Shown here: positions 5,686 through 57,479 of the stretch, piece after piece | How positions within the stretch are numbered: position 1 is the first letter of the stretch | How the letters are laid out: every line of letters starts with the position of its first letter | IMG/VR virus record: IMGVR_UViG_3300026382_000012 | Location: 1 to 64,000 of that record | Reading direction: 5' to 3' (one strand) | Length of the DNA stretch: 64,000 nt | Source: a virus | Program-made: the position numbers and the translations under genes | Notes under the pieces: generated by a model | The model's database searches: none | Told to the model about the DNA's origin: nothing | Seen by the model: only the letters and a program-made list of their open reading frames with translations

Positions 5686-5702
5686 AACTACTTTAAAGGA
5701 GG
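5686..5702 (+). repeat. First copy of dispersed element AACTACTTTAAAGGAGG. Other copies start at 8321, 9735, 10578, 11830, 14004, 14973, 15519, 17145, 21152, 22092, 22675 (degenerate), 23394, 24133, 24844, 25737 (half), 39124, 39907, 41158, 42309, 43331, 55808 and 57453
   Basis: Read directly; full copies are fused to the SD a few nt before a start codon. Confidence 0.93.
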
Positions 5703-5710
5703 AAATTTAC

Positions 5711-6349
5711 ATGACTCAGGGAAACAATATTGAACTAGAAAGAGCATTTACAGGAAGTTTATCATGCAATATGATAATAAATGGGAATAATATTCAAGGT
5801 GAGGCATTTGGTTATATTATTAAACCGTATTCTAGTGTAACACTTATATTTAGAAGCTCAGATGGTAATAATTTCGCAAATATTTATCTTGATTCTATTC
5901 ATCTAAGATTTATTAAGAATGTATTGGAAACGGGCGCGTTTGTTAATACAATGTTTAAAAAAAGAATAAGTAACAATATAATTCCAATACAATTTGTTTC
6001 CGATGAAAACTTTATTATGTTTACAATAACTGATCAAAGAAATAACTCATCAACAAATGTTGCAATAGCAAAACAAGATGTTGCATCTATTTTAGCACTT
6101 AAAAGTATTGTTGATGAATTATTACATATTATGACATATATAGAACCATATTTTGCTAAACAAAGAGAGCAAAATCAGCAGAATAGTATACAACAAAATA
6201 GCATACAGCAAATAAATAATAATGTAATTAATAGTGCTCCACCTGCTCCGCAACAAACAATACAACCAGTACAAACACAACAAAATACAATAGGCAATAG
6301 TCCTAATCCATTTGTAAATAGTATGAATAATAGTAATGGAGTTATTTAA
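5711..6349 (+). CDS. Hypothetical protein with Q/N/P-rich disordered tail
   Basis: ORF with strong SD; QQNSI repeats. Confidence 0.7.
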   Translation: MTQGNNIELERAFTGSLSCNMIINGNNIQGEAFGYIIKPYSSVTLIFRSSDGNNFANIYLDSIHLRFIKNVLETGAFVNTMFKKRISNNIIPIQFVSDENFIMFTITDQRNNSSTNVAIAKQDVASILALKSIVDELLHIMTYIEPYFAKQREQNQQNSIQQNSIQQINNNVINSAPPAPQQTIQPVQTQQNTIGNSPNPFVNSMNNSNGVI

Positions 6350-6351
6350 CA

Positions 6352-6771
6352 TTGATAGTAACAGATTTAACATATTATAATTGGTTTGGTTATGATCTAA
6401 CTAATCCAAGGAAATTAGATAAACTAATAAAGAAATTGGAAAGAATTATTAGAATATCACCTGAATATAAATTATGGGCAGATATATGCAGATCAGGTAA
6501 ATATAAATGTCCTAAATGCGGCATTAGTTCTGAACTAATGCCGCTAGAAGTTCATCATACCCCAAAAACATTATATGATATTGTTGATGAAGTATTAAAT
6601 AAACATATAGAAAATGATGATATATTAGAATTGTATCCAACAGATATTGTAAAAGAAGTATTATTATTACACTTAGAAAATAAAGTATCATATGAGGTAT
6701 TGTGTAAATCCTGTCATGAAATAGAACATAATAAAAGAAAACTTCAAGAATCAACAAAAATACCTGATTGA
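6352..6771 (+). CDS. HNH endonuclease-like zinc-binding protein
   Basis: CPKCG...LEVHH...VLCKSCHEIEH. Confidence 0.75.
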   Translation: MIVTDLTYYNWFGYDLTNPRKLDKLIKKLERIIRISPEYKLWADICRSGKYKCPKCGISSELMPLEVHHTPKTLYDIVDEVLNKHIENDDILELYPTDIVKEVLLLHLENKVSYEVLCKSCHEIEHNKRKLQESTKIPD

Positions 6772-6774
6772 TTT

Positions 6775-6793
6775 TGGTGGGTTTCGCCCACCA
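6775..6793 (+). terminator. GC-rich hairpin, probable intrinsic terminator
   Basis: TGGTGGG-TTTCG-CCCACCA followed by TATTT. Confidence 0.6.
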
Positions 6794-6825
6794 TATTTAA
6801 ACTAGCAAACAAGAGGAGTGCACTG

Positions 6826-7152
6826 ATGGAGAATACATACTTTTTTATAATTGCTTTATTAATCTATTTCTTTATTGATAAAATATTAGAAGTATTTGAG
6901 GAAAAATATAATTCTGATACTAACTTAACAGTAGCAGATGCAACTAATATAATTATCTTAATTGCTTCGCCTATAATTAAAAATCTTAAAAATGATAAAA
7001 GTAAAACAACAAAAGAAATACTAACGGAAACATATGCGTCGGTTATAAAAATGGTAGATATCAAAAAATATAAGAAATCGTTAGGACTAACTGATGAAGG
7101 ATTAAGAACATTTATTTCATCTATCATACTTGAACTTTATAATCAAACATAA
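6826..7152 (+). CDS. Small membrane-anchored hypothetical protein
   Basis: N-terminal hydrophobic stretch; GAGGAG SD. Confidence 0.65.
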   Translation: MENTYFFIIALLIYFFIDKILEVFEEKYNSDTNLTVADATNIIILIASPIIKNLKNDKSKTTKEILTETYASVIKMVDIKKYKKSLGLTDEGLRTFISSIILELYNQT

Positions 7153-7379: not shown

Positions 7380-7919
7380 ATGGATAAATATGAAAAAGTT
7401 AATTTTTCAATAAATGAAATTATTGATGAAATTAAAGAAGAATTTAAAAAGAATAATCATGATATTTTAATTGTATTGCCTATAATGACGGGCGTGATGC
7501 AATTCACAGTTGAATTATTGAAAAATATCAACGGAATAGAAAACAATATAAACCATATTATATATCCAGTTGTAATTAAGTCATATTATGCTAATAAACA
7601 GAAGAAATCTCCTACTATTAAATATTTTGAGGATATTGAGTTTGTGAGAGACGTTAAGAAATTTAATAACCCTATGATTATGATAGTCGATGATATAATA
7701 GATACGGGCGAAACAGTTGAATTTTTAACAAAATACATTAAGGAACTTACTGATAATAAAATCTATATTTGTTCGCTAATTTGGAAATCAAATAAATCCA
7801 AAATAAAACCTAATTTTTATTGTATTGAAGATAGATATGATAGATGGTGGGTAGGATTTGGAATGGATGATAATAATATGAATAGATTTACGAAAGAATT
7901 ATATTTTCTAACTAATTAG
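7380..7919 (+). CDS. hpt: Hypoxanthine/guanine phosphoribosyltransferase-like protein
   Basis: PRPP loop IVDDIIDTGET, KSY loop, WWVGFGMD. Confidence 0.85.
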   Translation: MDKYEKVNFSINEIIDEIKEEFKKNNHDILIVLPIMTGVMQFTVELLKNINGIENNINHIIYPVVIKSYYANKQKKSPTIKYFEDIEFVRDVKKFNNPMIMIVDDIIDTGETVEFLTKYIKELTDNKIYICSLIWKSNKSKIKPNFYCIEDRYDRWWVGFGMDDNNMNRFTKELYFLTN

Positions 7920-7940: not shown

Positions 7941-8321
7941 ATGAAGAAGTTAATTTGCCCAATCTGTAACAAAATGGTTGATTCGTTTTATATAGATTAT
8001 CGTGAAGCACAATATTGTTCTGTTTTATATCATGATGGTTATATTGACTGGGATAGTAAAGATATTGACGATACATATATTGAACTTATCACGTTAAGAT
8101 GTTCTAATTGTTTTATGTCATTTTCGGATGAATACTATAATATAGAAGAAGCAAAAAAATCTATTAAAGACTTTGAAATAGAATTAGATGCGAATAATAA
8201 TATTGTAAAAATAGGTGAAAGCGCAAAAATAATCTTACATAAACTAGCGCGTAAAAATAATATAGAAATAACAAATGATGAAGAATTAAACAATTTCTTT
8301 AAAATGTACTATAATTTATAA
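7941..8321 (+). CDS. Zinc-ribbon hypothetical protein, paralog of 13586..14005
   Basis: CPIC...DWD...CSNC...IGESAK. Confidence 0.7.
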   Translation: MKKLICPICNKMVDSFYIDYREAQYCSVLYHDGYIDWDSKDIDDTYIELITLRCSNCFMSFSDEYYNIEEAKKSIKDFEIELDANNNIVKIGESAKIILHKLARKNNIEITNDEELNNFFKMYYNL

Positions 8322-8343
8322 ACTACTTTAAAGGAGGTTGTTT

Positions 8344-9735
8344 ATGCAAAACACTAAAGTAAAAGTAAAACATATTGTAGATTATCTTAATGAACATGTT
8401 ATATCTCAGGATGACGCAAAAAGGCAATTAGCAATACTTATTAAGAATAAAGCAAGATATGAAAATATTAAAGAAGAAGATTGGAAGAAAAATATTACTC
8501 CATTTAATGCATTAATTATCGGCCCTACTGGTTCTGGTAAAACAGAACTATTTAGAAAATTGGCAGAATATTTAAATGTAGCATTTTGTAAAGTGGATAT
8601 TTCGGGTTATACTAGATCTGGATATGTTGGCAAGGATGTAGAAGATATTATTAATGTTCATTTATATGAGGCCGCTAAGAGAAAGGCAATAGAAGAATTA
8701 AAAGAAGAGTTAAGAGAAGATATAGAAAATAAGATTATTAAAGAACTGGCAGCTGCATATATAGAAAAACATAAAGATAAATTTACAAACAATAATGCTC
8801 ATAACACAATAGTAGGTTCCATGTTATTTACAGCAGATTCTGAAGATATTGAAAATGTTTTAAATAATATAAAAGAAATAGAAAAACGCATTAAACTTAG
8901 AGATCCCGATATTTTGAAAGAAGAAGTAACTGTAATCAGACAAGTATATAATTTACCTAAAAATGCTATTGTTCCACCGCAGATGAAAGATCAGTTTAGG
9001 GAAGAAAAAGCATTCACAGATACAATTGAAAATCTTCTTAAAGAGCTATTTGAGATTGATATACAGGAAATGGTTAAAGATAGTTCTAAACTAAGAAATA
9101 AGATTAAGGAATTGATGGAAAATGGAATTGTATTCATTGATGAAATTGATAAAATTGCAGGTAAAGATAATACTAGAATTGATACATCAGGAGTCCAAAA
9201 AGAGCTTCTTACATTGGTAGAAGGAACTACAGTTCAAACCGAGATCGGCCCAATTAACACAGATCATATTCTATTTATCGCAGCAGGTGCATTTCATACA
9301 GCAAAACCCTCTGATCTTCTTCCCGAATTATTGGGTAGATTTCCGGTTAGAATTGTATTAAAGAAACTCACAAAAGAAGATCTTAGAAGAATTCTTATCG
9401 AGCCAAAATATGCTATAATTAAGAAAGTTCAAAAGCTTTATGAAACAGATAACATCAAAATAGAATTTACAGATGATGCAATTGATGAAATTGCTGATAT
9501 TGCATGTCAACTTAATACAGAAGACGAAGATCTAGGCGCGAGAAGATTACATACCATTGTACATATGTTACTTGAAGACATAGATTTTGAAATTGAAGAA
9601 GGAAAGCTAGATAAAGAAAATATAGTTATAGATAAAGAATACGTAAGGAATAAGTACCAAGAAAAAGATAAGAAAATTAAAGAATCACTTGAATATCTTG
9701 AAGATAAGACAAGAAAAGTCGGGTTTGTTGTTTAA
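8344..9735 (+). CDS. hslU: HslU (ClpY)-like AAA+ unfoldase with atypical C-terminal KVGFVV tail
   Basis: GPTGSGKTE Walker A, GYVG pore loop, IVFIDEIDKIA Walker B, TDHILFIAAGAFH, PELLGRFPVR, LGARRLHT. Confidence 0.92.
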   Translation: MQNTKVKVKHIVDYLNEHVISQDDAKRQLAILIKNKARYENIKEEDWKKNITPFNALIIGPTGSGKTELFRKLAEYLNVAFCKVDISGYTRSGYVGKDVEDIINVHLYEAAKRKAIEELKEELREDIENKIIKELAAAYIEKHKDKFTNNNAHNTIVGSMLFTADSEDIENVLNNIKEIEKRIKLRDPDILKEEVTVIRQVYNLPKNAIVPPQMKDQFREEKAFTDTIENLLKELFEIDIQEMVKDSSKLRNKIKELMENGIVFIDEIDKIAGKDNTRIDTSGVQKELLTLVEGTTVQTEIGPINTDHILFIAAGAFHTAKPSDLLPELLGRFPVRIVLKKLTKEDLRRILIEPKYAIIKKVQKLYETDNIKIEFTDDAIDEIADIACQLNTEDEDLGARRLHTIVHMLLEDIDFEIEEGKLDKENIVIDKEYVRNKYQEKDKKIKESLEYLEDKTRKVGFVV

Positions 9736-9756
9736 ACTACTTTAAGGGAGGCATTA

Positions 9757-10038
9757 ATGGAGCTATTCCTAGTTATAGACAATACAATATCAAATATTTT
9801 TAATAAATGCATAGTCGGAGTAATGGATATATATTATGTACTTGATTATATTCAAGAGAGAATAAATGACTTTGAAGATTATATTTTAGATGATGAAGAT
9901 TTTATTATGCCCGATTTTGATGAATTAGAAAATGAACTAAGAAATATGCCATTTGGCGATGATATTTGTATTAGATTACCAGGAACCGATGATTATATTG
10001 ATATAATAAAAGTACCTGTGTATAAAGATCAAGATTAA
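9757..10038 (+). CDS. Small acidic hypothetical protein
   Basis: ORF after repeat element and SD; D/E-rich. Confidence 0.65.
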   Translation: MELFLVIDNTISNIFNKCIVGVMDIYYVLDYIQERINDFEDYILDDEDFIMPDFDELENELRNMPFGDDICIRLPGTDDYIDIIKVPVYKDQD

Positions 10039-10566: not shown

Positions 10567-10599
10567 TCCATACATAAAACTACTTCAAAGGAGGTTAAC

Positions 10600-11802
10600 A
10601 TGATTCAAATGTCGGTTTCTAAGTTTATTAACGTTTATCTTCCTGTTATTGTAAAATATGATTTTGATGTTATTCCTGTCATGGTTGGAAATCCTGGCAT
10701 ATCAAAAACAGCTCAATTGCATCAGCTTTGTGAAAGAATGAATTGGGGTTTGGTACCCGTGCATCTTGCCCTCCGACCAATTGAATCATTGTCAGGTTTA
10801 CCTGAAATCAAAAGATTTGATAATGAATTACATACGGAATGGTCTATGCCAGAAATTATTTCCAAAGCAAATGAATTGGCCAAAAAACATGAAAAAGTTA
10901 TACTATTCTTTGATGATATACATCTTGCTGATAAATCGAGACAAGCATACTTCTTCGAATTAGCGTCCGAAAGGGCGCTGCAAGGACATAAATTAGCAGA
11001 TAATGTTAGAATTGTTTGTGCCGGGAACCCTACTGCAAAGGCCGGCGCAAAAACATTTCTAACAGCAATTATTAACAGATTTACATTTATAGACGTTGGT
11101 ATTACATTAAAAGATTGGCAAGATTGGGTGCTAGATAATACCAATAAATATGCTAAGTTTAATGCTAATATTAATGAGAAAGACATCGAAAGAGTTAGAT
11201 CATATAAAATACATCCGATGGTATTAGGTTTCCTTATGGATAATGATGCAAAACTATCTGAAGGTGAAAATACTTCGCCATTTGCATCTCCAAGATCTTG
11301 GTATTTTATGTCAGAATGGGTGAAAATTTTCGAATTACTATATGGAAATACAAATAATTGGAATGATGATGTTATTTCTGATTTTAGCAATATAGCTAAA
11401 GGTACTATAGGTGCATCGATTGCTACAGAATTTGTCACATTTATTAAATATACGTATGATATTGATATTGAGAAAATTATGAAAGATCCTAAAGAACTAC
11501 TTAAAATACAGGATAAAGAGAAAAGAATTGCCGCATATACACTTACATTGGCTAGGCTAGCAGACCCTAAGAACAGAAAATACTGTGTTAGATTTATAGA
11601 CTTTGCATATTATATCCTTGGAAATAATGGAAAAGCAAAACATTTCGCCACAATTGCAATTTCTGTACTAAAGAATCAGATTATTCCAGCTGCATCGAAA
11701 ACAGTATTTGAAAATGATTATCTGCCGCCTTACGATGGCAGAGGATATAAAGAATTCTTCGATATTCTTACAGAAATTATTAACGATCTTAAATTTGTAT
11801 AA
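10600..11802 (+). CDS. MoxR/dynein-related AAA+ ATPase
   Basis: GNPGISKT Walker A, LFFDDI Walker B, CAGNP, NRF, SPRSW. Confidence 0.85.
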   Translation: MIQMSVSKFINVYLPVIVKYDFDVIPVMVGNPGISKTAQLHQLCERMNWGLVPVHLALRPIESLSGLPEIKRFDNELHTEWSMPEIISKANELAKKHEKVILFFDDIHLADKSRQAYFFELASERALQGHKLADNVRIVCAGNPTAKAGAKTFLTAIINRFTFIDVGITLKDWQDWVLDNTNKYAKFNANINEKDIERVRSYKIHPMVLGFLMDNDAKLSEGENTSPFASPRSWYFMSEWVKIFELLYGNTNNWNDDVISDFSNIAKGTIGASIATEFVTFIKYTYDIDIEKIMKDPKELLKIQDKEKRIAAYTLTLARLADPKNRKYCVRFIDFAYYILGNNGKAKHFATIAISVLKNQIIPAASKTVFENDYLPPYDGRGYKEFFDILTEIINDLKFV

Positions 11803-11806: not shown

Positions 11807-11828
11807 ATTGGGGCGGTCGCGCCCCAAT
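11807..11828 (+). terminator. GC hairpin between MoxR and VWA genes
   Basis: ATTGGGGCG-GTCG-CGCCCCAAT; weak U-tract, so possibly a stability or processing hairpin. Confidence 0.45.
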
Positions 11829-11850
11829 TAACTACTTTAAAGGAGGCATA

Positions 11851-13377
11851 ATGGAAAAGAAAAAACTAACAAATGAAGATTGGTCAACAATAGTAACAAA
11901 CCTAATATACTTCGATAAAAATAGCGTATTATATCCATTTCTTAGGGCTCTACAAGGGTTTATTTTAATGCTAGAACATGATATTGAAATTTCCGATGAG
12001 AAAGAAATCTCTGACTTATATATCGAATATAATAATGGCAATATTATTGTCAAAGGAACTTTAGCTGAAATTTCTGATAAGAATGAGAGAATTAAACAAT
12101 GGACATTTGATGTGGCACATACAATATTTATGTATATAAATAGACAGCCGCAAAGAGGAAAAAATAAAATCGCGCAGTTATGGTTTAAATCGCTATGTAA
12201 ATTAAATAACGATTTATATGGTTTGTCATATCCGAAAATATATTATAAATTGTTTGAAGATGCTGACACGATTATAAACAAAGTAAAAGAAAAAGTAAAG
12301 AATTATAGCTATTCTGAGGAAGAAAATTATAAAATTTTAAAATCTATGCATAAATCATTTAATAATTCATTAAATAATTTTCTACAAGAACTATCACAAG
12401 TTATACAACAATTGAATCAAATGATGTCATCTACCAATAGTAGAAGCACAAAATCTAAACTAACAAACCTCAAGAATAAATTAGAAAAGATTCGTGATGA
12501 TCTTACAAATAAGGGATATGCAGACAATAATGATATTGAACAATCCAAAGATTTAAATAATTCAACACCTAATAAAACGTTAAAGAAAAAAATTGATGAT
12601 CTTTTAAATAAGTTACAAAAATCCGAGTTTAACAGTAAAAATATACCAATTAATTGGTATGAAAATTCAGCTAATGATGAACAAGGAAATGAGAATAGTG
12701 ATAAAGTAACTAATATTATACATAGATCGTTAAGAGCTTCATTTGAAAAATTGAAAGGAGAATTGCCTGGGCATATTATTGATAAGTTAAGAAAATTATT
12801 AAAGATAGAACTTGATTGGAGTGAAATTCTATCGCGCGCTTTAAATACATTTTTAGAAAAATCACAAGCTAAAAAATGGAACTATCCAAACATCTATTAT
12901 AGACACATTAGATACTTACCATCAGATGATTTTGAAGAATCAATACATAACATAACATGTTTTGTAGATACTTCTGGATCTATGTCTGATGAAGAACTAG
13001 AGAAAATTTTTGGTATCATATACGATCTTATAGAGAAAAATAATATCAAAACGATTACCATTATACAACATGACTATGAATTACAACATTATGAATTAAT
13101 CGATGCAGAAGACATTGCCGATGAAAAAGATTTACTGAATAAAATTAAAATATATGGTAGAGGTGGCACATCTCATATAAGACCTTGGAAGAAATTCGAA
13201 GAATTAATGGAAATGGAAGAACTACCATTTCCAGATTTGGTAATATTTATGTCAGATTTCTTTTCAGATTTTGAAGAGTTGTATAACGAAATTAAAAATG
13301 ATTATGAATGTTTCTGTATTACAACAGATAAGAAACCAGCAATTAACGATAAATCAAGAATTATTAAGATTAGATAA
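11851..13377 (+). CDS. VWA-domain protein (DUF2201-like), MoxR partner
   Basis: MIDAS DTSGSMS, GRGGTS, FMSD; LDWSEIL and YLPS motifs. Confidence 0.85.
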   Translation: MEKKKLTNEDWSTIVTNLIYFDKNSVLYPFLRALQGFILMLEHDIEISDEKEISDLYIEYNNGNIIVKGTLAEISDKNERIKQWTFDVAHTIFMYINRQPQRGKNKIAQLWFKSLCKLNNDLYGLSYPKIYYKLFEDADTIINKVKEKVKNYSYSEEENYKILKSMHKSFNNSLNNFLQELSQVIQQLNQMMSSTNSRSTKSKLTNLKNKLEKIRDDLTNKGYADNNDIEQSKDLNNSTPNKTLKKKIDDLLNKLQKSEFNSKNIPINWYENSANDEQGNENSDKVTNIIHRSLRASFEKLKGELPGHIIDKLRKLLKIELDWSEILSRALNTFLEKSQAKKWNYPNIYYRHIRYLPSDDFEESIHNITCFVDTSGSMSDEELEKIFGIIYDLIEKNNIKTITIIQHDYELQHYELIDAEDIADEKDLLNKIKIYGRGGTSHIRPWKKFEELMEMEELPFPDLVIFMSDFFSDFEELYNEIKNDYECFCITTDKKPAINDKSRIIKIR

Positions 13378-13585: not shown

Positions 13586-14005
13586 ATGAAGAAAAGATAT
13601 TTTGTCTGCCCAGATTGTGGTTTAGTAGATAATGTAGAAATGCACGGTTATACAATTACCACTTTTTACATAAGATTTTCTGGAAATGATTATGATTGGG
13701 ATGCATATGAAGAAGATTCAAGTAATAATAGTATGAATATACATACTATTTTATGTCCTAATTGCTATAATGAAATAGCCGAAGGTCTAGACATAGCATC
13801 AGATGATTATGATACAATCTATAAATATCAAATTATTGTAGATACCAAAAATAATAAAATTGAAATAGGCGAATTTGCAAAAGAATTATTAATTGAATAC
13901 GTAACTAATAATGTATTTTTACCTGAAGAATTTAGTAACAAAAATGAATTTACAGATGAAGATCTGGTAAACATAGTTAAATTAATTTTGCTAGAAGAAA
14001 AATAA
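13586..14005 (+). CDS. Zinc-ribbon hypothetical protein, paralog of 7941..8321
   Basis: CPDC...DWD...CPNC...IGEFAK. Confidence 0.7.
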   Translation: MKKRYFVCPDCGLVDNVEMHGYTITTFYIRFSGNDYDWDAYEEDSSNNSMNIHTILCPNCYNEIAEGLDIASDDYDTIYKYQIIVDTKNNKIEIGEFAKELLIEYVTNNVFLPEEFSNKNEFTDEDLVNIVKLILLEEK

Positions 14006-14025
14006 CTACTTTAAAGGAGGGTTTC

Positions 14026-14352
14026 ATGTCTACGCCTTGTAAAATTGTTTTGAAAAAAGATAATCGTAAATATATTACTTATTATTCTTCGGACGGCTAT
14101 CCAAATGAAATATTACCTATGTTAATAAATCTAAACGAATTAGAGCCAGACGAATATCCGGTATACGATGAACACAATGATCCATATTTTGATTTTGATT
14201 TTCTTTATGTAATAGAAGACGATAAAATCAAAGTATTTAATCCAAATGTAGCAGATGCTATTTACGATAGAAGTACTGGTGGATTAATAGAACTAATTCC
14301 ATATGATGATGACGATGAGTATGTAGAATCAATATATCCGAAAAAAGTATAA
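14026..14352 (+). CDS. Acidic hypothetical protein
   Basis: MST...SDGYP start, a pattern seen in small phage proteins. Confidence 0.65.
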   Translation: MSTPCKIVLKKDNRKYITYYSSDGYPNEILPMLINLNELEPDEYPVYDEHNDPYFDFDFLYVIEDDKIKVFNPNVADAIYDRSTGGLIELIPYDDDDEYVESIYPKKV

Positions 14353-14961: not shown

Positions 14962-14996
14962 TTTTTCTAAAAAACTACTTTCAAGGAGGTACTGAT

Positions 14997-15496: not shown

Positions 15497-15542
15497 AAAT
15501 AAGCAAATATTTTTGTTAAACCACTTTAAAGGAGGAAGAATC

Positions 15543-16811: not shown

Positions 16812-17155
16812 TGGAGTTTAATGTGATCTCTAAACGATATTGTTTTATTAAATCAATAGTATTTTATTGTCCTAAATGTAAAAAGATTTACGAATATAAA
16901 ACCGTTCGGTATGAATTACCTGGCTTGATATCTGTGAAACATACGATATCAAACACAGTTAGAAGATCAGAAATTATTTCTTTCAATGCCGAAAAGAAAA
17001 CAATTATTCTTAAATCCGAAGAAAGTTATATCATAGATGATACTGGTATTCTATTACAACCAATATGTCCAAAATGTAAAACAAATTCAGAAAAAAATAT
17101 TATAATTGCAATGAATGATGAAACTTTTCAATATATTCTAAAAGAACTACTTTAA
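16811..17155 (+). CDS. Zinc-ribbon hypothetical protein
   Basis: Two CPKC motifs. Confidence 0.65.
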   Translation: MEFNVISKRYCFIKSIVFYCPKCKKIYEYKTVRYELPGLISVKHTISNTVRRSEIISFNAEKKTIILKSEESYIIDDTGILLQPICPKCKTNSEKNIIIAMNDETFQYILKELL

Positions 17156-17168
17156 AGGAAGGTATAAA

Positions 17169-20472: not shown

Positions 20473-21162
20473 ATGCGTATAATTAAATACAGTGGTAGTA
20501 ATAAAGTAGAAATAAGAGCTGAAAGTTCTCCTGGTATAATATATCCGTTTCCGAAAGATTTAAAGAAGATTATAGATTTTATTGGGAAGATACAATTGTC
20601 TGAGTTTCATGTTGATAGTTTAGAACTATCAATAAATCCATTACGAATTATTATTTCAGGTACATTTCGAACAATAATTTTTAGTAAATTAGATACTTCT
20701 TTATCCTTAAATAACTCTATAAAAGAAATTATCATGTGGTTGTTAAATAATTTTAATACCTCACATATAAGAAAATTGGAAATAACAGAAACTGCAGATT
20801 CTGTTTTAATTACTTCTGGTAGTTTTACATATACATTGGTTACTAGTATTGCATTTCATAAATTAATGAATAAGCTATGTATTTATAAAGATTTGATTCT
20901 ATATAATCTTAATGACGAAGAAATGAACATTGTAAAAAATCAGTTTGATAAGTACACAAAAATAATATGCGAACTAAAATATCCTATCGTTGTGCATAAA
21001 GTGGATCAGGAAAATATAACTATAACTAAATACGCTAAACAACGAAAGACAATAAAGAATATACACGAATTAGACCTAATTCCTTTTATAATAGAAACGA
21101 ATATTCTAGATGATGAGTTAGAGAGATCTATATGCCAATTTATTAAGATGCAACTACTTTAA
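20473..21162 (+). CDS. Hypothetical protein (C-terminal motif family)
   Basis: Ends ICQFIKMQLL. Confidence 0.7.
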   Translation: MRIIKYSGSNKVEIRAESSPGIIYPFPKDLKKIIDFIGKIQLSEFHVDSLELSINPLRIIISGTFRTIIFSKLDTSLSLNNSIKEIIMWLLNNFNTSHIRKLEITETADSVLITSGSFTYTLVTSIAFHKLMNKLCIYKDLILYNLNDEEMNIVKNQFDKYTKIICELKYPIVVHKVDQENITITKYAKQRKTIKNIHELDLIPFIIETNILDDELERSICQFIKMQLL

Positions 21163-21173
21163 AGGAGGTTAGA

Positions 21174-22091: not shown

Positions 22092-22113
22092 AACTACTTT
22101 AAAGGAGACGGAA

Positions 22114-22696: not shown

Positions 22697-23404
22697 ATGA
22701 AGCTAACTATAAAACTTGATATTAACGGTATACATATACATGGTGATATAGGATTAATGAAACAATTAAATAACGATTTATATAAATATGTTAATAGCAT
22801 TATAAATAATAAATACTCTTTCGGCACAATAGTAGAAATATATGATAGTACATTCAAAGTAAGTTATAAAAAGTTCTCGATATTTAGTGTATACAGAAAT
22901 GTAGAAGACTTTAGTAACAAAATAAATAGATATTTGTCTATACTAAATACACTAGCATATATTAATATTGTTAAAAATAACAGCAACATTGAAGATATTG
23001 AATTTGATCTGTTAGATAAAGTTGTTAGAATCAATAATAATAATGACGCTCAAATTCAAATAGAAGATTTAACAAAAGAAAGTATAATTATAAGATATTT
23101 TCATAATTTAATTTTAATTTATGAAGATAACAAATATGATTTGCATAAAATTACAGAATATATAAATGAGCTTTATTCATCTGTACATAAAAATATTTAT
23201 TCAAAATATTTAACCATAATCTCGGAACAAGAAAACGCAATATTTGAGATATTAACTCTTAATGTTGAAGATTTAACTTATAGAAAATATAGATTGGTCG
23301 ATAACATATACGATGCAGTTATACATGGTATTTTAGGTGTATTATTTAACGATAATAAAATATTAAAAGAATTAGCGAATTTGCATAAATTGAAACTATT
23401 TTAA
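22697..23404 (+). CDS. Hypothetical protein (C-terminal motif family)
   Basis: Ends LANLHKLKLF. Confidence 0.7.
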   Translation: MKLTIKLDINGIHIHGDIGLMKQLNNDLYKYVNSIINNKYSFGTIVEIYDSTFKVSYKKFSIFSVYRNVEDFSNKINRYLSILNTLAYINIVKNNSNIEDIEFDLLDKVVRINNNNDAQIQIEDLTKESIIIRYFHNLILIYEDNKYDLHKITEYINELYSSVHKNIYSKYLTIISEQENAIFEILTLNVEDLTYRKYRLVDNIYDAVIHGILGVLFNDNKILKELANLHKLKLF

Positions 23405-23420
23405 AGGAGGTAATTAAATC

Positions 23421-24143
23421 ATGAAGTGTTTGGAATGTAAAGGTGATTTAAAACTATACGGTGCCGCTGCTAGAAAATCACATAATAAATATTACTTAAC
23501 ATCCCTATGCTATATTTGTGAAAACTGCAATAAAATGAACATTTTTTCAACTAGACCAAAAATCATACCGAATTTAGATATTAACTTAATTTACATACCT
23601 TTTATGAAAGAGTTAGATCATATTAAAATATTGTTTCCTGCTAACAGAATTATTATACATGGTATTGATAAAAAAGATAAAGAGATTACTGTGCCTATGG
23701 CGTATGACACAAAAAATTTAGTCAATATTATCAATAACTTTAATCTTAATGATTTAGATTTGCAATATATCGACCCAGAATATAAATGTCTCAATTGTGG
23801 GTCAAGAGAACACAGAATTAATGGAATTAATATAAATATTTCTAAGAATTTTACAATTACACGGGCGATAATTAAATGTTCTAAATGTAAACAATCAAAA
23901 ACATATAATTTTTATGATTCACCTATTCAAATACCACATATAGATATTATTAAGCAGAAGTACGAAAAATATGTTTCAAAATTAGATAAATATTGTATTT
24001 ATTTATCAAATATGGGAAATGTAATATTATATGGACAAGATATAAATACAAGTTATAGACTGAGATATATCTTATACAAGTATAATAGAGATGAATACAA
24101 CAATATTTTATTGCAAATTTATAGGCGCATAAAACTACTTTAA
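23421..24143 (+). CDS. Internally duplicated zinc-ribbon protein
   Basis: KCLEC..CENC..IPNLD and KCLNC..CSKC..IPHID halves. Confidence 0.7.
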   Translation: MKCLECKGDLKLYGAAARKSHNKYYLTSLCYICENCNKMNIFSTRPKIIPNLDINLIYIPFMKELDHIKILFPANRIIIHGIDKKDKEITVPMAYDTKNLVNIINNFNLNDLDLQYIDPEYKCLNCGSREHRINGININISKNFTITRAIIKCSKCKQSKTYNFYDSPIQIPHIDIIKQKYEKYVSKLDKYCIYLSNMGNVILYGQDINTSYRLRYILYKYNRDEYNNILLQIYRRIKLL

Positions 24144-24153
24144 AGGAGGCACA

Positions 24154-24843: not shown

Positions 24844-24865
24844 TACTACCTTAAAGGAGGCCAGA

Positions 24866-25738
24866 ATGATCAAACTAGATAGAGAAATAGTTTTTAGAAA
24901 ACTTAAAGAACTTCCTACACTTTCTAAAGTTGAAATAGGTTGGGGGTTATGTTCTAAACAACCAGATATAACAATTAATGGTAAACTATATGAAATTCCT
25001 CGGGATTTACATAAAGAACTTTATTCATCTGAATCGCCAATTAGTATAGGTAATGGAAGATATTTACTATCCTATAAAAAATGTTTAAAGATTCGAAAAT
25101 TTGTTATAGTAGATAAAAAATTAAGCAACTGGAAATATATAGGTGAGTTATCACATATATCTTCATGGGGGCGTGATATAAATGATGAAGTATTTGACTG
25201 TCATATTCAACATTTATTTCTATTTCTAAATTTGGAAAGAAGACACGGTGATGTACTTCTAATTGATAACAATATTCTTGTTATAAACGATTGTGCGAAA
25301 TTTCGTATATTTTATCCAGAAATAGTAAATCTGAAAGATTTACTTTATAATAAATTTCCGCCACCTCCAAATGATGGTAAATTAGTATTTAAGGAAATTA
25401 CTATTCAACCCCCTAAAAAACTTTTAAACAAATGGATACAACAAGTATGTAATACACATGGTATAATGCCAGAAAATTGGAAGAAATATGGTAGAATAGT
25501 TAGAAAAGTACAAAGAAAAGCAGAATTATATGCTGCATGGAAATTATTAAGAAAAGGTAAACAAGTATATCTTCCTAGTCATATAGTTTATTACGATGAT
25601 GAAGCTAATTTGCATACATATTGTTTAGTAGGAACTCCAGCTATAAGAGGAGTATTTATTGCTGAAAAAGAAGATTATATTTTCGATATCTTCTCTACGA
25701 AAGAACCTGTTTATAAAATAAAAACTTCAGTGCTCTAA
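24866..25738 (+). CDS. Hypothetical protein
   Basis: 290-aa ORF after element/SD. Confidence 0.7.
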   Translation: MIKLDREIVFRKLKELPTLSKVEIGWGLCSKQPDITINGKLYEIPRDLHKELYSSESPISIGNGRYLLSYKKCLKIRKFVIVDKKLSNWKYIGELSHISSWGRDINDEVFDCHIQHLFLFLNLERRHGDVLLIDNNILVINDCAKFRIFYPEIVNLKDLLYNKFPPPPNDGKLVFKEITIQPPKKLLNKWIQQVCNTHGIMPENWKKYGRIVRKVQRKAELYAAWKLLRKGKQVYLPSHIVYYDDEANLHTYCLVGTPAIRGVFIAEKEDYIFDIFSTKEPVYKIKTSVL

Positions 25739-25868
25739 CTACTTTATGCTCCTCCATTCCTACTTAAACTTATTAAAAATTAAGTAGGAATTTTGGAGCA
25801 CGGAGATTCATAAAGAACCTCATTACTACCCACTATCCCTTTAGATAGGGATTCGTGGGATACCTTTA
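25728..25868 (-). ncRNA. Predicted TnpB omegaRNA of element 1 (scaffold plus flank-derived guide)
   Basis: Nested hairpins TATCCCAC..TCCCT/AGGGA..GTGGGTA and GTGCTCC..ATTCCTACTTAA/TTAAGTAGGAAT..GGAGCAT, shared with the other two elements. Confidence 0.65.
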
Positions 25869-27843: not shown

Positions 27844-27956
27844 GATTCCTACTCCTTATTAATTTTTATAGTAGATTTTACTATCTTCTAATAGATTATT
27901 CACTATTTTTTTGTCTATTAATAGTACTGTTTTGTACTACATATAAGCAAAAATAA

Positions 27957-37430: not shown

Positions 37431-37458
37431 TTAGAACCATTTTATTGGAGGTTAGATA

Positions 37459-39110: not shown

Positions 39111-39144
39111 ATATAAACTCCTAAACTACTTTAAAGGAGACATA

Positions 39145-39906: not shown

Positions 39907-39927
39907 AACTACTTAAAGAGAGGAGCG

Positions 39928-40416: not shown

Positions 40417-41159
40417 TAAAGACAAGAAACGATACTTATATTTTAGAAACTAAAAAAGAATTATTATCATTTCTAAAAAAGAACATAAGTAGATTTGAAT
40501 ATATTACAATTGAATATTTATTCGGCATTATGCTAGAAATACTTAATAACACCATAAATTCAGAAGTAATTGATATTTTGTTAAAAATGAGTGAATATAG
40601 CGCAGTAAATAATATTGCATTATATCGTAATAATGAATTGGCTATCAATAATTTAGTTTTTGAAAAATGGAGTATTGATAGTCTCCGCAAGCTTCTTAAA
40701 TATCTTAAACTCGATTACTATGATCCAAAAAAGATTTTTCAACTTGATTGGAAATTTATATTTAGAGATTTGAAAGATCTACTTAATTTCTTAGAGGATT
40801 CATATCTATGTGTTTCAAATACTAATAATAATCATTACATAATCGATCTAAGAAAACATATATCTGAAGATAGTATAATTAGTGTAAATAGTGATACATT
40901 CAAAATTCAAGAAATTGTCTATGGTGAAAAATGGAAAATTATACTCGATGAATTTGGTACGGAGTATTTTTATATAATCGGCGGGCGCGATGATTTTCTA
41001 AACAAAATATCAACACTCCTATGTTCTATACAAAAATTTAATCTAGATATAGTTAAAAAACATATTATTAAATATCTAGCAAAGCAACAAAAAAATACAT
41101 TTACAATTGATATTCTTGATGAGCTTAGTAACTATATTAATATTGTTATGAAATTCTAA
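40407..41159 (+). CDS. Hypothetical protein (C-terminal motif family)
   Basis: Ends LSNYINIVMKF. Confidence 0.7.
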   Translation: MYVVKTRNDTYILETKKELLSFLKKNISRFEYITIEYLFGIMLEILNNTINSEVIDILLKMSEYSAVNNIALYRNNELAINNLVFEKWSIDSLRKLLKYLKLDYYDPKKIFQLDWKFIFRDLKDLLNFLEDSYLCVSNTNNNHYIIDLRKHISEDSIISVNSDTFKIQEIVYGEKWKIILDEFGTEYFYIIGGRDDFLNKISTLLCSIQKFNLDIVKKHIIKYLAKQQKNTFTIDILDELSNYINIVMKF

Positions 41160-41181
41160 CTACTTTAAAGGGGGCGTAAAA

Positions 41182-42300: not shown

Positions 42301-42330
42301 AATCTAAAAACTACTTCAAAGGAGTACGAA

Positions 42331-43223: not shown

Positions 43224-43351
43224 TAGAAAAAATATAAGGGAGGTCACGTTGGCAGGTATAATCTTCTTGAGGTAAATTGTGACTGTCTATAAACAATAAA
43301 TGTTATATCTTATCCTATCTTATTTTTACAAACTACTTTAAGGAGGTTAAA

Positions 43352-50485: not shown

Positions 50486-51095
50486 CTTTTAATACCTCAT
50501 CTTTTAATTTTTTAATTTTTCTATAATTTCGTGTACCGTAAATCTTCATAGCATAAAGATGTATTATACGTACTAATTCTTCTACAATATCTTGTACTCT
50601 GTCATATTTAATACTATCTTGATTTATAACTACCAATTCAATACCTAATATATCAAATAATGTTTTAAATAAATCAAAACCAATTCTAGCTAATCTGTCT
50701 TTATCAGCAATAACAATTCTTTTCGGTTTATAAATATAACATGTTTTTAGTAATTCTTTTAATCCTTTTCTATTAAAATTAACAGATGAACCAATATCTT
50801 TAATTATTTTAGATATTTGCCAACCATTAGCAATGCAATATTTTTCACAATATTCAATTTGATTTTCTAGATTATTCTTTTGTTTAGTTGTTGAAACTCT
50901 ACAATAAATAATTGTATCGTAATTTTCTGATATATCTTTCTTTATTTTACCTAATTTATATAGTGTTTTTAAATGTTCATCTGTATATCTTCTTTTGCCA
51001 CCAGGCGTACGCAATGGATTAAGAATATTATCATAACGACGCAAAGTTGAAATGCTTAGACCAGTTAATTTAGAAAATTCTTTTATATTATACAT
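50457..51095 (-). CDS. tnpA: IS607 TnpA serine recombinase
   Basis: HTH, RTPGGKRRY, YCRVST, DRLAR, KIYGTR. Confidence 0.93.
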   Translation of the reverse strand: MYNIKEFSKLTGLSISTLRRYDNILNPLRTPGGKRRYTDEHLKTLYKLGKIKKDISENYDTIIYCRVSTTKQKNNLENQIEYCEKYCIANGWQISKIIKDIGSSVNFNRKGLKELLKTCYIYKPKRIVIADKDRLARIGFDLFKTLFDILGIELVVINQDSIKYDRVQDIVEELVRIIHLYAMKIYGTRNYRKIKKLKDEVLKDVGIEEKES

Positions 51096-53710: not shown

Positions 53711-54388
53711 ATGTTAAAATTTATTGAGAGTATATGGCTCTCAACAAAGTTATTCTTTAGCAAAGCAGATTGTTATTTTATCAATAACAAAAAAGGATAT
53801 ATTAAAGTTAAAACACGCCCGATACATTTTATATATAAAAATGAAAATTACAATTTTGCCATTATACATATTCCATTTGAAGAAATAAAGATACTATATA
53901 TCCCAGATAGAACTTTATTGCTAAATTTTAGTAACGAAACTGAGTTACATCATTGGATAAATACCGTTTTGCAATTAGTTGAAGATGAGATAATTTTGGA
54001 AGATCATTTTAATTCTTCTCTTACTATTGGGCATATAGAATATTGTAAAACTGCACCGATTGATGAGATATTAAGCAATTTTAAATTTGAAGAGCATGAA
54101 CTTAATAAAACTGACAATACTATTAATATTGTCGCGCACCATAATGAAAACTTAGACGATATAATAACATTTATAATTAATACTCTAAGAAACATATCAA
54201 ATAGTATCTCAATTATTAATGATATATATGTAATAATTGGTTATGGCCAGATAACAATCAAATACGGTAAAAGAAAATTAACAAAATTGATAGAAAAGAT
54301 TAAAGATACTGATATTTATATGTTGTTCATTAACGATATTAAGTTAATAGAATTAATTAAAAATCATAATCTATTAAAGAAGTTATAG
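53711..54388 (+). CDS. Hypothetical protein (C-terminal motif family)
   Basis: Ends IKNHNLLKKL. Confidence 0.7.
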   Translation: MLKFIESIWLSTKLFFSKADCYFINNKKGYIKVKTRPIHFIYKNENYNFAIIHIPFEEIKILYIPDRTLLLNFSNETELHHWINTVLQLVEDEIILEDHFNSSLTIGHIEYCKTAPIDEILSNFKFEEHELNKTDNTINIVAHHNENLDDIITFIINTLRNISNSISIINDIYVIIGYGQITIKYGKRKLTKLIEKIKDTDIYMLFINDIKLIELIKNHNLLKKL

Positions 54389-54400
54389 AAAGAAACTGTA

Positions 54401-55081
54401 ATGTGGGAAGCAGAAACCTTTTATACATACACAGTAGCTTATAATATTAATAAAAATGTAAACATTAAAAAAGAACATTTAATTAAATTTATAGAATTAG
54501 TAGAATATTTTTCGGAAACTATAAACTTATATATAAGAGCATTCTATAAAACTCTAGTAACAGTAAAATACGATGGTTTAGTTATTAAACTGATATTCGA
54601 TAAAAATATGACACAAAGAGAATATGATGAATTAATTGATAAATTAGATAAAATTACGCCTCAAGAATTAAGAAATTTCTTTCACAATCAAATTACAAAA
54701 AATGTAGTTGAATACATAGAAATATTAGATTACGAATCAATCAAAATAGTATTTAAAAACTTAACTACTTATATTTTAAGTATTGATGACATAAATAACT
54801 TTAAAGAGGGATATCGTCCGGAAAAATCCGTATTTTTGTTAAATAAGAGAAATCCGAATAATACTGAAATAATCAAAATAGTAGATAGGTTATCAAAATT
54901 ATTTAATCATTATTTCTTAGTAATCGATAATATATTACTTATATATAACGATAGTTTAGATATATTAAAGATAATTACCCCTATTGACAAAATAAAAATT
55001 AATGATATAATTAGTCAGTTGACTTTTGAAAAGTTTACTCTAGAGGAACTGAATAATTATGAAAAACTCCGTGCGCTTTAA
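54401..55081 (+). CDS. Hypothetical protein, module gene A copy 2
   Basis: Close paralog of 56018; ends LNNYEKLRAL. Confidence 0.75.
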   Translation: MWEAETFYTYTVAYNINKNVNIKKEHLIKFIELVEYFSETINLYIRAFYKTLVTVKYDGLVIKLIFDKNMTQREYDELIDKLDKITPQELRNFFHNQITKNVVEYIEILDYESIKIVFKNLTTYILSIDDINNFKEGYRPEKSVFLLNKRNPNNTEIIKIVDRLSKLFNHYFLVIDNILLIYNDSLDILKIITPIDKIKINDIISQLTFEKFTLEELNNYEKLRAL

Positions 55082-55808
55082 ACAAACATTATATATAATT
55101 TTAGATAAAGAAAATCTATTAATATACGATAAAGATAAGATACTAAAAATCAATATAAAAGAAATCGAAATCGATGAAATATCTTATTTTAAAAAACACA
55201 TCCTGAAATTATCATACAATAATAAAATATATTACGAATTTGAGTTTAGTAATTATAGAAATAATAGACAAAAAAAATTATCAATAGAGTATTGTACGAA
55301 TAATGATAATATTGTAGATGTTGTTAATAAAATAATGAACAAAAAATCCATAATACCATTTATGTATTATATAGCAAATGCAAAAATAGATAACTTAAAT
55401 GTTATTATATCTGAAGACAATGATAATATAATCGAAATTAATGGAATCACTTTACGTGCACCGCGCATTAAAACATCATATGATATAAGTTATTTTGCGT
55501 CGTCAACGTACATTCGTTATTTATGTATAAATACATATTCTGATAAAATACACAATAAATTGGGAGAGATATCGAAAAAAATAATAGATAAAATAAGTAA
55601 TTTAAACATTCATAGTCCAATATTTACAATAGATTTTGATTATATAGTTTTTGAGAGCAGAATATTCTTCGTATTAAATAATTATATACGAGAAATAAAG
55701 GATGAATTAGATATACAAGAAATAATATTAATGTTTATGAAGAAAATGTTTAACTTAAAAATAAATGATGAAGAGCATACATCATTACTTAAACTAATGA
55801 TGCAATAA
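55059..55808 (+). CDS. Hypothetical protein, module gene B copy 2
   Basis: Close paralog of 56692; ends HTSLLKLMMQ. Confidence 0.75.
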   Translation: MKNSVRFKQTLYIILDKENLLIYDKDKILKINIKEIEIDEISYFKKHILKLSYNNKIYYEFEFSNYRNNRQKKLSIEYCTNNDNIVDVVNKIMNKKSIIPFMYYIANAKIDNLNVIISEDNDNIIEINGITLRAPRIKTSYDISYFASSTYIRYLCINTYSDKIHNKLGEISKKIIDKISNLNIHSPIFTIDFDYIVFESRIFFVLNNYIREIKDELDIQEIILMFMKKMFNLKINDEEHTSLLKLMMQ

Positions 55809-55830
55809 ACTACTTTAAAGGAGGTAAACG

Positions 55831-56006
55831 ATGGAAAAGAAAGTTAAGTATATTGTTAAAAAGAGTTGTACTAGGTCGTACATGATACGGTGATAAAGGT
55901 GTTTATAAAATGGAAACAAATAGACTATATGACACATACGAAGAAAAATTATTAGAAATTATCAAAGAAACCCCAAATCAAGATGGTCTACTAAAGAAAT
56001 TGTAGG
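55831..56006 (+). pseudogene. Frameshifted gene remnant ending LLKKL*, like 53711..54388
   Basis: Element, SD and ATG give only 20 codons; a second frame reads YGDKG...DGLLKKL*. Confidence 0.45.
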
Positions 56007-56017
56007 GAGAAGTTGCA

Positions 56018-56689
56018 ATGTGGAAAGTAGAAGCTTTTCATTCATATATAGTGGCTTACGACATTAATGAAAATATAAATGTAAAAAGAGAACATTTAAC
56101 TAAATTTATAGAATTAGTAGAACATTTCTCAGGAACTATAAATTTATATATAAGATTATTCTACAAATTTTTAGTGTTGATAAAATGTGACGACTCAATT
56201 ATTAAAATAATGTTTGATACTAGTATAACGCAAAATGAATACAATGAATTAATCGATAAATTAGATAAAATCACGCACCGACTAAAAGAAATAGGAAATT
56301 TCTTCCATAATCCAGTCACAAAAAATATGGTCGGATATATAGAGATATTAGACTATAGATCAATCAAAATAGTATTTAAAAATTCAACTACTTATATCCT
56401 AAATATTGATGATATAAATAACTTTAAGGAAAAAGTAATACATAAAAAATCTATATTATTACTGAATAAGAATAATCCAAATAATGTTAAAATAATTAAA
56501 ACAATAGATAAATTATCGAAATTATTTAATCATTACTTCTTAGTAATCGATAATATGTTACTTATATATAACAATAGTCTAGATGCGTTAATAACAGTTA
56601 TCTCTATTGATAAAGTAGAGATTGACGATGTGATTAAACAATTAACTTTTGGATTATTTACCTCAAAGAACCTCAAAGGAGTTAAGTAG
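56018..56689 (+). CDS. Hypothetical protein, module gene A copy 3 (tail frameshifted)
   Basis: Paralog of 54401; ACCTCAAAG duplication alters the C-terminus. Confidence 0.75.
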   Translation: MWKVEAFHSYIVAYDINENINVKREHLTKFIELVEHFSGTINLYIRLFYKFLVLIKCDDSIIKIMFDTSITQNEYNELIDKLDKITHRLKEIGNFFHNPVTKNMVGYIEILDYRSIKIVFKNSTTYILNIDDINNFKEKVIHKKSILLLNKNNPNNVKIIKTIDKLSKLFNHYFLVIDNMLLIYNNSLDALITVISIDKVEIDDVIKQLTFGLFTSKNLKGVK

Positions 56690-56691
56690 CT

Positions 56692-57453
56692 ATGAAAACC
56701 GCACGCCTATACACAATATTAGATAAGGAAAATCTACTAGTAAATGATAGTAACGAAATACTAAAAATTAATATAGAAGAAATAGTTGATGAAATGGGTT
56801 ATTTCAAGAAACATATTTTAAAATCATCATATAATAATAAAATATGTTACGAATTTAAATTTAACGAGTATGGAAATAGTAGACCGAAGAAATTATCAAT
56901 AAAATATTATACAAATAATGACAATATTGTAGAAGTTGTCAATGAAATAATGAACGAAAAATCTATAGTAGCATTTATATATTACATAGTTAATGCAAAA
57001 ATAGACAAACTAAATGTTACTATATCTGAAGATAATGGAGTCATAATTAAAACCAACGAAATAACTTTACACGCGCCGCATATCAAAGCATTATGCAATA
57101 CAAATCATTCTATTTTGTCATTTGCATTGCCATCAACATTTATAGCAAACACACATATTTGTAGTCTATGTATGAATACAAATTTTAGTAAGGCATATAA
57201 TAAATCAGACAAAATAACAAGAAAAATAACGGATAAAATAAACAGTTTAAATATACACAAACTAACATTTACAATAAGCTTTGACTATATAGTTTTTGAA
57301 GATAAAATATTCTTCGTATTACATGACTATATACGAGAAATAAAAAATGACGCGGATATACAGGAAATAGCATTGTTATATATAAAGAAAATGCTTAACT
57401 TAAAAATAACTGATGAGGAATACGCCACATTGTTTAAATTATTGATGTTGTAA
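56692..57453 (+). CDS. Hypothetical protein, module gene B copy 3
   Basis: Ends YATLFKLLML. Confidence 0.75.
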   Translation: MKTARLYTILDKENLLVNDSNEILKINIEEIVDEMGYFKKHILKSSYNNKICYEFKFNEYGNSRPKKLSIKYYTNNDNIVEVVNEIMNEKSIVAFIYYIVNAKIDKLNVTISEDNGVIIKTNEITLHAPHIKALCNTNHSILSFALPSTFIANTHICSLCMNTNFSKAYNKSDKITRKITDKINSLNIHKLTFTISFDYIVFEDKIFFVLHDYIREIKNDADIQEIALLYIKKMLNLKITDEEYATLFKLLML

Positions 57454-57479
57454 ACTACTTTAAAGGAGGTTAGAATAAA

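Follow-up and report, generated by a model that had tools for sequence, protein, structure and literature searches.

In cluster K mycobacteriophages, a class of genes is preceded by start-associated sequences (SAS; Pope et al. 2011). These are asymmetric 13-bp sequences, present in one orientation and in 11–19 copies per genome, which lie 3–9 bp before the start codons of non-structural genes only (PMC3203893). Their AGGAG is set between conserved flanks that are unable to pair with 16S rRNA, some of them include the stop codon of the gene upstream, and the host genome has no exact copy (PMC3203893). About half of the SAS copies are preceded by an extended element (ESAS), which is now thought to bear a promoter (PMC11373665), and the role of SAS was still called ill-defined in 2024 (PMC11373665) and in 2025 (PMC12699233). 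Here we describe an element of similar behaviour in the IMG/VR virus record IMGVR_UViG_3300026382_000012. The first 64 kb of this 85,766-bp record, which is rated 33% complete, were analysed and are referred to as the window. The element is a 17-nt sequence, AACTACTTTAAAGGAGG (hereafter the 17-mer), and we propose, with a confidence that stays a little short of even, that it is a SAS-like composite signal for the start of translation, which is placed before about 20 non-structural cistrons and read in the mRNA.

Signals at phage gene starts can work in quite different ways. In phage T4, the endoribonuclease RegB cuts GGAG in early Shine–Dalgarno (SD) sites, while promoter-early-stem-loop (PeSL) repeats flank small early genes and promote shuffling. 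For the epsilon motif of the T7 gene 10 leader, pairing with helix 17 of 16S rRNA has been proposed. Promoters of the virion RNA polymerases of phiKZ-related phages are extended, AT-rich and highly conserved, have the transcriptional start 6 nt downstream and were found by their over-representation (PMC5312081; PMC7598289). The early promoter of phage AR9 has the form AAATATATATTAT-(6N)-G(+1) (PMC5312081).

Results

A conserved 17-nt element that includes the Shine–Dalgarno site

At up to three mismatches, the window contains 20 matches to the 17-mer, eight of which are exact, whereas only 0.22 are expected from dinucleotide-preserving shuffles and none of 100 shuffles reached 20. The k-mers most over-represented in the record are words of the 17-mer. 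Relaxed searches added one copy with a 1-base deletion, two copies with four mismatches before genes and one half copy, which brings the total to 24, and all of them are on the plus strand. The remaining 64–86 kb of the record, which carry minus-strand virion genes, were also searched for the 17-mer and contain no copy. Two of the copies (55808 and 57453) belong to an old tandem duplication and cannot be counted as independent.

In the aligned copies the information content is high at all 17 positions and at background at position 0 and position 18. With information at background just outside the 17 nt, there is neither a −35-like partner nor nucleotide-level conservation into the upstream coding region. 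The 3′ half, AAAGGAGG, is an 8-nt full-strength SD site; in every full copy the start codon, which is ATG or in two cases GTG, lies 4–10 nt past GGAGG. The 5′ half, AACUACUUU, keeps one fixed register relative to the SD in each of the 21 full copies. Its conservation (positions 1–9, which sit 5′ of the 8-nt SD match) equals that of the SD itself. A perfect GGAGG was found for 14 of the 20 motif genes but for only 9 of the 73 other genes (p = 1 × 10−6). Since GGAGG is coupled to the 5′ half in this way, the 17 nt behave as one selected unit. Direct reading and matches on the minus strand also showed that the 17-mer is an imperfect palindrome (7 of 9) around TTTAAA.

In 10 copies, or 11 if the half copy at 25737 is counted, the stop codon of the preceding gene overlaps the beginning of the motif (positions −1 to +1). 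Another four copies have the TAA within the motif as the stop of that gene, and the element encodes its last residues (ELL, QLL, KLF or KLL) together with the stop. Five copies have the stop codon 6–28 nt upstream of the motif, only two follow a long gap, and one is located between divergent genes. Among the plus-strand proteins that end at the element, many possess an amphipathic tail in which N, K, I and L abound. We considered whether conservation continues from the element into the upstream C-terminal coding sequence and rejected this, as none is present at the nucleotide level; any shared C-terminal tail signal upstream of the element would have to lie at the protein or compositional level.

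The element is confined to one class of genes

The 17-mer precedes 20 of the 61 plus-strand genes and none of the 32 minus-strand genes (Fisher p = 9 × 10−5). All recognised virion genes are on the minus strand (tail sheath, head protease, terminase, baseplate and virion proteins), as are genes for a tape-measure-like lysin, a DnaB-like helicase and an SbcD-like exonuclease. These genes mostly have AAAAGGAG-type sites without a fixed extension. Between 1 and 25.7 kb, the plus strand encodes a split, intein-bearing family B DNA polymerase, QueD-, QueC- and amidotransferase-like enzymes, a phosphoribosyltransferase, an HslU-like ATPase, a ClpP-like protease, a MoxR-like ATPase with a DUF2201/VWA partner, an ATP-dependent DNA ligase, an SLT-domain protein and many ORFans.

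A first-pass annotation, made from the sequence alone, had described 23 copies, all on the plus strand and never before structural genes, with conservation beyond the SD. It had also pointed to four copies that supply the last residues and the stop of the upstream gene, to ordinary SD sites before the minus-strand virion genes, and to a copy without SD at 25737 that ends an operon. The observation was confirmed, with a similar count (24 including the degenerate and half copies), and the copy at 25737 is the half copy at the stop of the last gene of its block.

Occurrence in prokaryotes, phages and metagenomes

One possibility, which the first-pass annotation had named among its refuting conditions, is that the motif is the general extended SD of the host. 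In a complete scan of one genome for each of 185,579 prokaryotic species we found 54 exact copies of the 17-mer, and at most two per genome; the host was not identified. By our estimate this is about the number expected by chance, while the 85-kb phage fragment alone has eight exact copies. A host-wide or general extended SD was rejected because of this scarcity in every species genome scanned and because the element is absent before the late genes of the phage.

Megablast against phages gave no match, and no relatives were found when IMG/VR was searched with the sheath protein and the DUF2201 alignment. Homologues of the DUF2201 protein are encoded on a 13.5-kb contig (74% identity) and on a 130-kb contig (identical protein). 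The cultured relatives JD-Fnp1, Goe21, LPJP1 and UFV_DC4 are without the 17-mer. Scans of IMG/VR and metagenomes for the exact 17-mer gave, among the matches listed, single and apparently chance matches apart from one metagenome contig, L040 (Ga0256836_1000762, 27.5% G+C). Four copies were found on L040, all before genes, where 0.07 are expected, and among the matches listed L040 stands out from the other metagenome contigs with an exact 17-mer; it is otherwise dissimilar to the record. L040 encodes split RNA polymerase β′ pieces, whose nearest relatives are found in AR9-like Bacillus phages, in Staphylococcus and Listeria giant phages and in Fusobacterium phage JD-Fnp1.

JD-Fnp1 (ON464759.1), which encodes RNA polymerase, has an SD-fused word of its own, (A)AAATTTTAAGGAGGAA, before about 16–18 genes, with examples at 149598, 146928 and 143227 (−). 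In the form ATTTTAAGGAGG the word has 16 copies in this phage, compared with 0.04 expected.

A second motif with the form of an early promoter

When the long intergenic gaps of the window were listed, a second motif became apparent, the 13-mer ATATAGATATTAT. It occurs in seven exact copies (0.21 expected), all on the plus strand and mostly in long intergenic gaps, at 3732 (3732..3744), 7228, 15483, 23938, 37416, 38758 and 43210. Copies with one mismatch are located at 43926 and at record position 77104, the latter before the lone plus-strand gene at 77165, and L040 has an exact copy at 7464, which is 18 nt before one of its 17-mers. A purine is found 7 nt past the 13-mer in all nine copies of the record and also in L040. 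The predicted leaders from the 13-mer to the first open reading frame (ORF) are 24–42 nt long at five sites and longer elsewhere, and along the plus-strand blocks the distance from one predicted early start to the next ranges from 0.7 to about 8 kb. A pattern combining the 13-mer with the 17-mer had 29 matches in IMG/VR, none of which contained the 17-mer, and these were discarded as chance.

Known early motifs of giant phages are AT-only, have the start 6 nt downstream and leaders of at least 26 nt, and leave the SD outside. This description is fitted by the 13-mer with its seven exact copies, its purine at +7 in nine of nine cases and its leaders, but not by the 17-mer, which contains the SD and in which a start 6 nt past the AT-rich part would fall behind it. 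The 13-mer is probably the early promoter of this phage, used by the virion RNA polymerase, and the 17-mer is probably not.

Three 17-mer copies of the record lie 0, 17 and 102 nt from a predicted start site, and one copy of L040 lies 12 nt from it. As these four copies are downstream of the predicted starts, they would be situated in 5′ leaders. The promoter-proximal copies at 15519 and 37435 and the L040 copy are the variant AACCAYTTTA. If early transcripts start at the 13-mers and span several genes, most of the 17-mers would lie in polycistronic RNA, that is inside multi-gene early transcripts and at the cistron junctions. A perfect inverted repeat, TAAGTAGT-TT-ACTACTTA (3746–3763), immediately follows the 13-mer at 3732 and spans the start predicted for it. 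The ACTACTT core that the 17-mer has in its 5′ half is also present in the arms of this repeat.

Phage type

The terminase is distantly T4-gp17-like. For the virion protein encoded at 69273–70538 on the minus strand, homologues were found only in phiKZ-type giant phages of Erwinia, Yersinia, Pseudomonas, Vibrio, Bacillus, Listeria and Salmonella. Because of these protein homologies, and because L040 carries RNA polymerase β′ genes, we infer a polymerase-encoding giant phage of the phiKZ/AR9 type; L040 would be a relative that covers part of the genome missing from this record. Sigma-70-type promoter-like sites were slightly fewer than in shuffles in three 20-kb scans (139 vs 157, 153 vs 175 and 171 vs 192), which agrees with a phage independent of the host polymerase.

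Individual copies and their surroundings

All copies listed here are on the plus strand. The most upstream one is a degenerate copy, AATTACTTAATAGGAGA, at 4040..4056 (four mismatches), directly past a GC-rich hairpin and before gene 4064–4492, which has a TTG start. Exact copies follow at 5686..5702, with the ATG of gene 5711–6349 8 nt after it, and at 8321..8337, where the upstream stop overlaps position 1 and the downstream gene (8344–9735) encodes the HslU-like AAA+ ATPase. Single-mismatch copies at 9735..9751 and 10578..10594 precede gene 9757–10038 and the AAA/MoxR-like ATPase gene 10600–11802, respectively. The exact copy at 11830..11846 has a GC-rich hairpin (about 11808–11829) directly 5′ and leads the DUF2201/VWA gene 11851–13377, while that at 14004..14020 leads gene 14026–14352, followed by the ClpP-like gene 14383–14961. 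Further downstream, a copy with one mismatch (14973..14989) belongs to gene 14997–15386, and the AACCAC... variant at 15519..15535, 23 nt past the 13-mer at 15483, belongs to gene 15543–16025.

The four copies that close an upstream reading frame are those at 17145..17161 (one mismatch; ELL and stop; gene 17169–17540), 21152..21168 (exact; QLL and stop; gene 21174–22091), 23394..23410 (one mismatch; KLF and stop; gene 23421–24143) and 24133..24149 (exact; KLL and stop; gene 24154–24843, with an SLT transglycosylase domain). In the same block, gene 22114–22593 with its GTG start follows a single-mismatch copy at 22092..22108, and gene 24866–25738 a copy with two mismatches at 24844..24860. The half copy AACTACTTTA (25737..25746), which is without SD, is found where the last gene of the block stops and abuts the end of an IS607/TnpB element.

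In the second half of the window, the degenerate copy AACCATTTTATTGGAGG at 37435..37451 (four mismatches; gene 37459–37836) is located 6 nt past the 13-mer at 37416, and the predicted transcript start is its first base. The copy at 39124..39140 (one mismatch; gene 39145–39906) lies in a 34-nt gap between divergent genes. It is followed by copies at 39907..39923 (three mismatches; gene 39928–40416), 41158..41174 (one mismatch; gene 41182–41481) and 42309..42325 (two mismatches; gene 42331–43194), and by the copy lacking one A, AACTACTTTAAGGAGG, at 43331..43346 (gene 43352–43879), 108 nt past the 13-mer at 43210.

The last two copies are exact and mark the right ends of the old tandem duplication, a two-gene unit of 1.5 kb repeated with 74% identity (54370–55825 and 55987–57470). 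The first (55808..55824) is followed only by a 20-codon ORF, the second (57453..57469) by gene 57480–58289 with a GTG start. In both units the homology stops one base past the 17-mer; the 20-nt identical run at this end is only the third or fourth longest in the alignment. A unique spacer of 161 nt with two mini-ORFs separates the units.

Both hairpins mentioned above (about 11808–11829 and about 4011–4039) are GC-rich, have no U-tract and directly adjoin a 17-mer copy on its 5′ side. Possible roles are those of a terminator for the phage polymerase, a processing site or a stabiliser of 3′ ends. IS607-type elements with a TnpA serine recombinase and TnpB are present three times in the window, at 25747–27945 (−), 45878–47816 (+) and 49085–51095 (−). 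In the first of these, tnpA is decayed, and its end abuts the half copy at 25737. Targeting of the 17-mer by TnpB/IS607 was rejected, as the half copy abuts only one of the three IS607 copies.

The family B DNA polymerase (1–3728) is encoded by two adjacent genes, each with a match to an intein or Hint domain, and the motif C/thumb piece is located upstream of the exonuclease/motif A piece. The QueD-like (4883–5680), phosphoribosyltransferase (7380–7919), QueC-like (16053–16811) and glutamine-amidotransferase-like (17506–18237) genes together suggest a 7-deazaguanine-type modification of the phage DNA.

Discussion

The 17-mer resembles SAS in being short and asymmetric, with an SD core embedded in it, a few nucleotides before the start codon (4–10 nt for the 17-mer). 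Like SAS, it is found in a single orientation and before non-structural genes only, and the upstream stop sometimes lies inside it. The subset of SAS with an ESAS in front also has a counterpart here, namely the pairs of 13-mer and 17-mer, although the inverted repeat of the ESAS is not present. The two elements are nevertheless unrelated in sequence: the SAS consensus GGGATAGGAGCCC is GC-rich and the 17-mer AT-rich, and conservation extends to both sides of the SD in SAS but to the 5′ side only in the 17-mer. The carriers differ as well, SAS occurring in temperate siphoviruses that use the host polymerase and the 17-mer in what appears to be a lytic-type giant phage with its own RNA polymerases. 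Thus, the 17-mer appears to share the behaviour of SAS, but not its sequence, phage type or host type, and is an analogue rather than a member by sequence.

If the 17-mer is a composite translation-start signal, it might function as follows. Early transcription would begin at separate promoters, the ATATAGATATTAT copies, and extend over several genes, which would place most of the 17-mers within polycistronic RNA, in many cases overlapping the stop codon of the preceding gene. At these sites a 30S subunit would be recruited or retained by the SD half. The 5′ half, presumably not able to pair with the 16S tail, would most likely be recognised at each of its bases by a dedicated factor. This putative factor, probably encoded by the phage, may switch translation of the gene set on or off jointly. 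The same logic has been proposed for the SAS of cluster K mycobacteriophages, where it is still unproven. Reading in the mRNA is supported by the phage and class specificity of the 17-mer, by its fixed fusion to the SD and by the confinement of conservation to 17 nt. In addition, the long gaps are filled by a separate motif of the AR9 early form, and recurrence of the motif pair in L040 points in the same direction.

It is also possible, although we regard it as doubtful, that the 5′ half serves as an address label for a lineage-specific factor, which might be a protein, a small RNA or a phage-modified ribosome. Such a label would single out about 20 cistrons inside polymerase-independent early transcripts, either to be translated selectively or to be cut into SD-led units.

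Several results weigh against a start signal read in mRNA. The 85 kb contain no candidate for a reader protein, and Pfam and PHROGs gave nothing for the small plus-strand proteins. Rfam gave nothing in the 85 kb for a complementary RNA, and an antisense RNA to the 5′ half was rejected since no intergenic reverse-complement copy exists in the same 85 kb. The predicted RNA accessibility of start regions with the motif is no different from that of other genes, and a hairpin sequestering the SD, or a special accessibility, was rejected on these predictions. Furthermore, nine near-invariant bases are equally typical of a phage polymerase promoter, and two 17-mer copies stand directly past GC-rich hairpins. 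If these hairpins are terminators, the genes downstream need a promoter exactly at the 17-mer.

Since the phage probably falls into a group encoding RNA polymerases, which the first-pass annotation had overlooked together with the separate AR9-like early-promoter motif of the window, a polymerase promoter is a serious rival, even if we consider it unlikely. In this view, the 17-mer joins a compact promoter to the SD: a non-virion RNA polymerase (middle class) recognises AACTACTTTAAA and starts at about position 12–13, and each motif gene gets its own short-leader mRNA beginning with the SD. Promoters of the AR9/phiKZ type are likewise short, highly conserved, of single orientation and over-represented before many genes (PMC5312081, PMC7598289), and conservation of all 17 positions is what would be expected of a phage polymerase promoter. 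AR9 late promoters, AACA-(6N)-TA/G, are found before about half of all genes (PMC5312081). They begin with AAC as the 17-mer does, lie close to gene starts, mostly with leaders of 17–35 nt in the part of Table S3 consulted, and with their geometry the AAC of the 17-mer is placed so that transcription would start at position 12. The location of copies directly past the hairpins at 11808 and 4011 would also fit, as would the finding that sigma-70-like sites are no commoner than in shuffles.

However, the set of features that defines an AR9-type late promoter (AACA at −11 to −8, T at −1, a purine start and a position before late structural genes) is not found in the 17-mer. Only AAC fits, and the A at −8 and the T at −1 are unmatched (position 4 is T and position 11 is A). 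Structural genes have neither the element nor an excess of AACA-N6-TR. The resulting leader would be only 10–16 nt long, below any AR9 leader in the same part of Table S3. Moreover, the 5′ half never occurs at another distance from the SD, which independent functions of promoter and SD would allow, and the three record copies and the L040 copy in predicted leaders are already 0–102 nt past a probable early start.

A purely cis-acting enhancer or coupling spacer appears improbable. Here, an unstructured, G-free and U-rich stretch before a strong SD would aid ribosomes with no dedicated factor, through S1 or standby binding and by re-initiation after the overlapping stop, as proposed for T7 gene 10 epsilon. 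The likeness to epsilon is considerable, as in both cases a phage mRNA leader has an AACU...UUUAA word immediately before a strong SD of the AGGAG type, and the epsilon motif UUAACUUUAA is used upstream of the SD (PMC9590205). The upstream stop overlaps the element in 14 of 21 copies, and the related Fusobacterium phage has its own SD-fused AT-rich word 16 times. On the other hand, epsilon is one leader of one gene, whereas 20 genes share the word in a fixed register here. Such enhancers tolerate variation, while nine bases including two Cs are near-invariant in the 17-mer; the element is restricted to one class and absent from late genes that also need efficient translation, and the predicted accessibility offers no advantage. 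The first-pass annotation had put forward a translational enhancer as one of three options among which it did not choose. Taken as an extended start signal, with the SD at a working distance and the 5′ half in a fixed register, this option fits best; the nine near-invariant, presumably non-pairing bases exceed an enhancer of the T7 epsilon type.

Quite improbable is a binding or cleavage site for an endoribonuclease, by which early polycistrons would be cut into SD-led units, or units inactivated, as by T4 RegB at GGAG. The first-pass annotation had suggested a site for a regulator or RNase of this kind, and the positions of copies at cistron boundaries inside probable multi-gene transcripts agree with it. 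Two copies are located past stable hairpins that could protect a new 3′ end, and the element contains GGAG. The RegB and PeSL systems of T4 are also class-specific signals at early gene starts, but the 17-mer has no attached sigma-70 promoter or regular stem-loop. RegB-type sites are not known to have a long flanking consensus. No RNase candidate, and no RegB-like protein in particular, was found among the proteins scanned with Pfam and PHROGs in the 85 kb, which represent about a third of the genome.

A role at the DNA level, either as a stoperator-like roadblock for a phage DNA-binding protein or as the short-homology recombination joint of gene cassettes that the first-pass annotation had envisaged, is highly improbable: the imperfect dyad symmetry around TTTAAA, the L5-type stoperators that are also asymmetric, single-orientation and intergenic (PMC3203893), and one weak datum for a joint, the 74%-identical tandem duplication of 1.5 kb that ends at the 3′ end of the element in both units, are set against two non-symmetric positions conserved as such, a fixed SD register left unexplained, a 20-nt identical run that does not rank first or second in its alignment, and a length of 17 nt that is short for homologous exchange.

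It has been clear since 2011 that cluster K mycobacteriophages have conserved sequences fused to the SD of one class of genes, and their mechanism has not been found. An independent case, unrelated in sequence, in a probable phiKZ/AR9-type giant phage of an AT-rich host suggests a recurring phage strategy rather than an oddity of mycobacteriophages. The question is sharpened here because the promoter and the start-associated element are separable by sequence. In practical terms, the 17-mer is a marker for contigs of this uncultured lineage that flags non-structural, probably early or middle, genes, and, given a host or a cell-free system, it provides a defined bait for RNA pull-down or reporter work. 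If the 5′ half is indeed an address label, it would amount to a layer of translational control private to the phage and would offer the first workable clue to the function of SAS-type elements.

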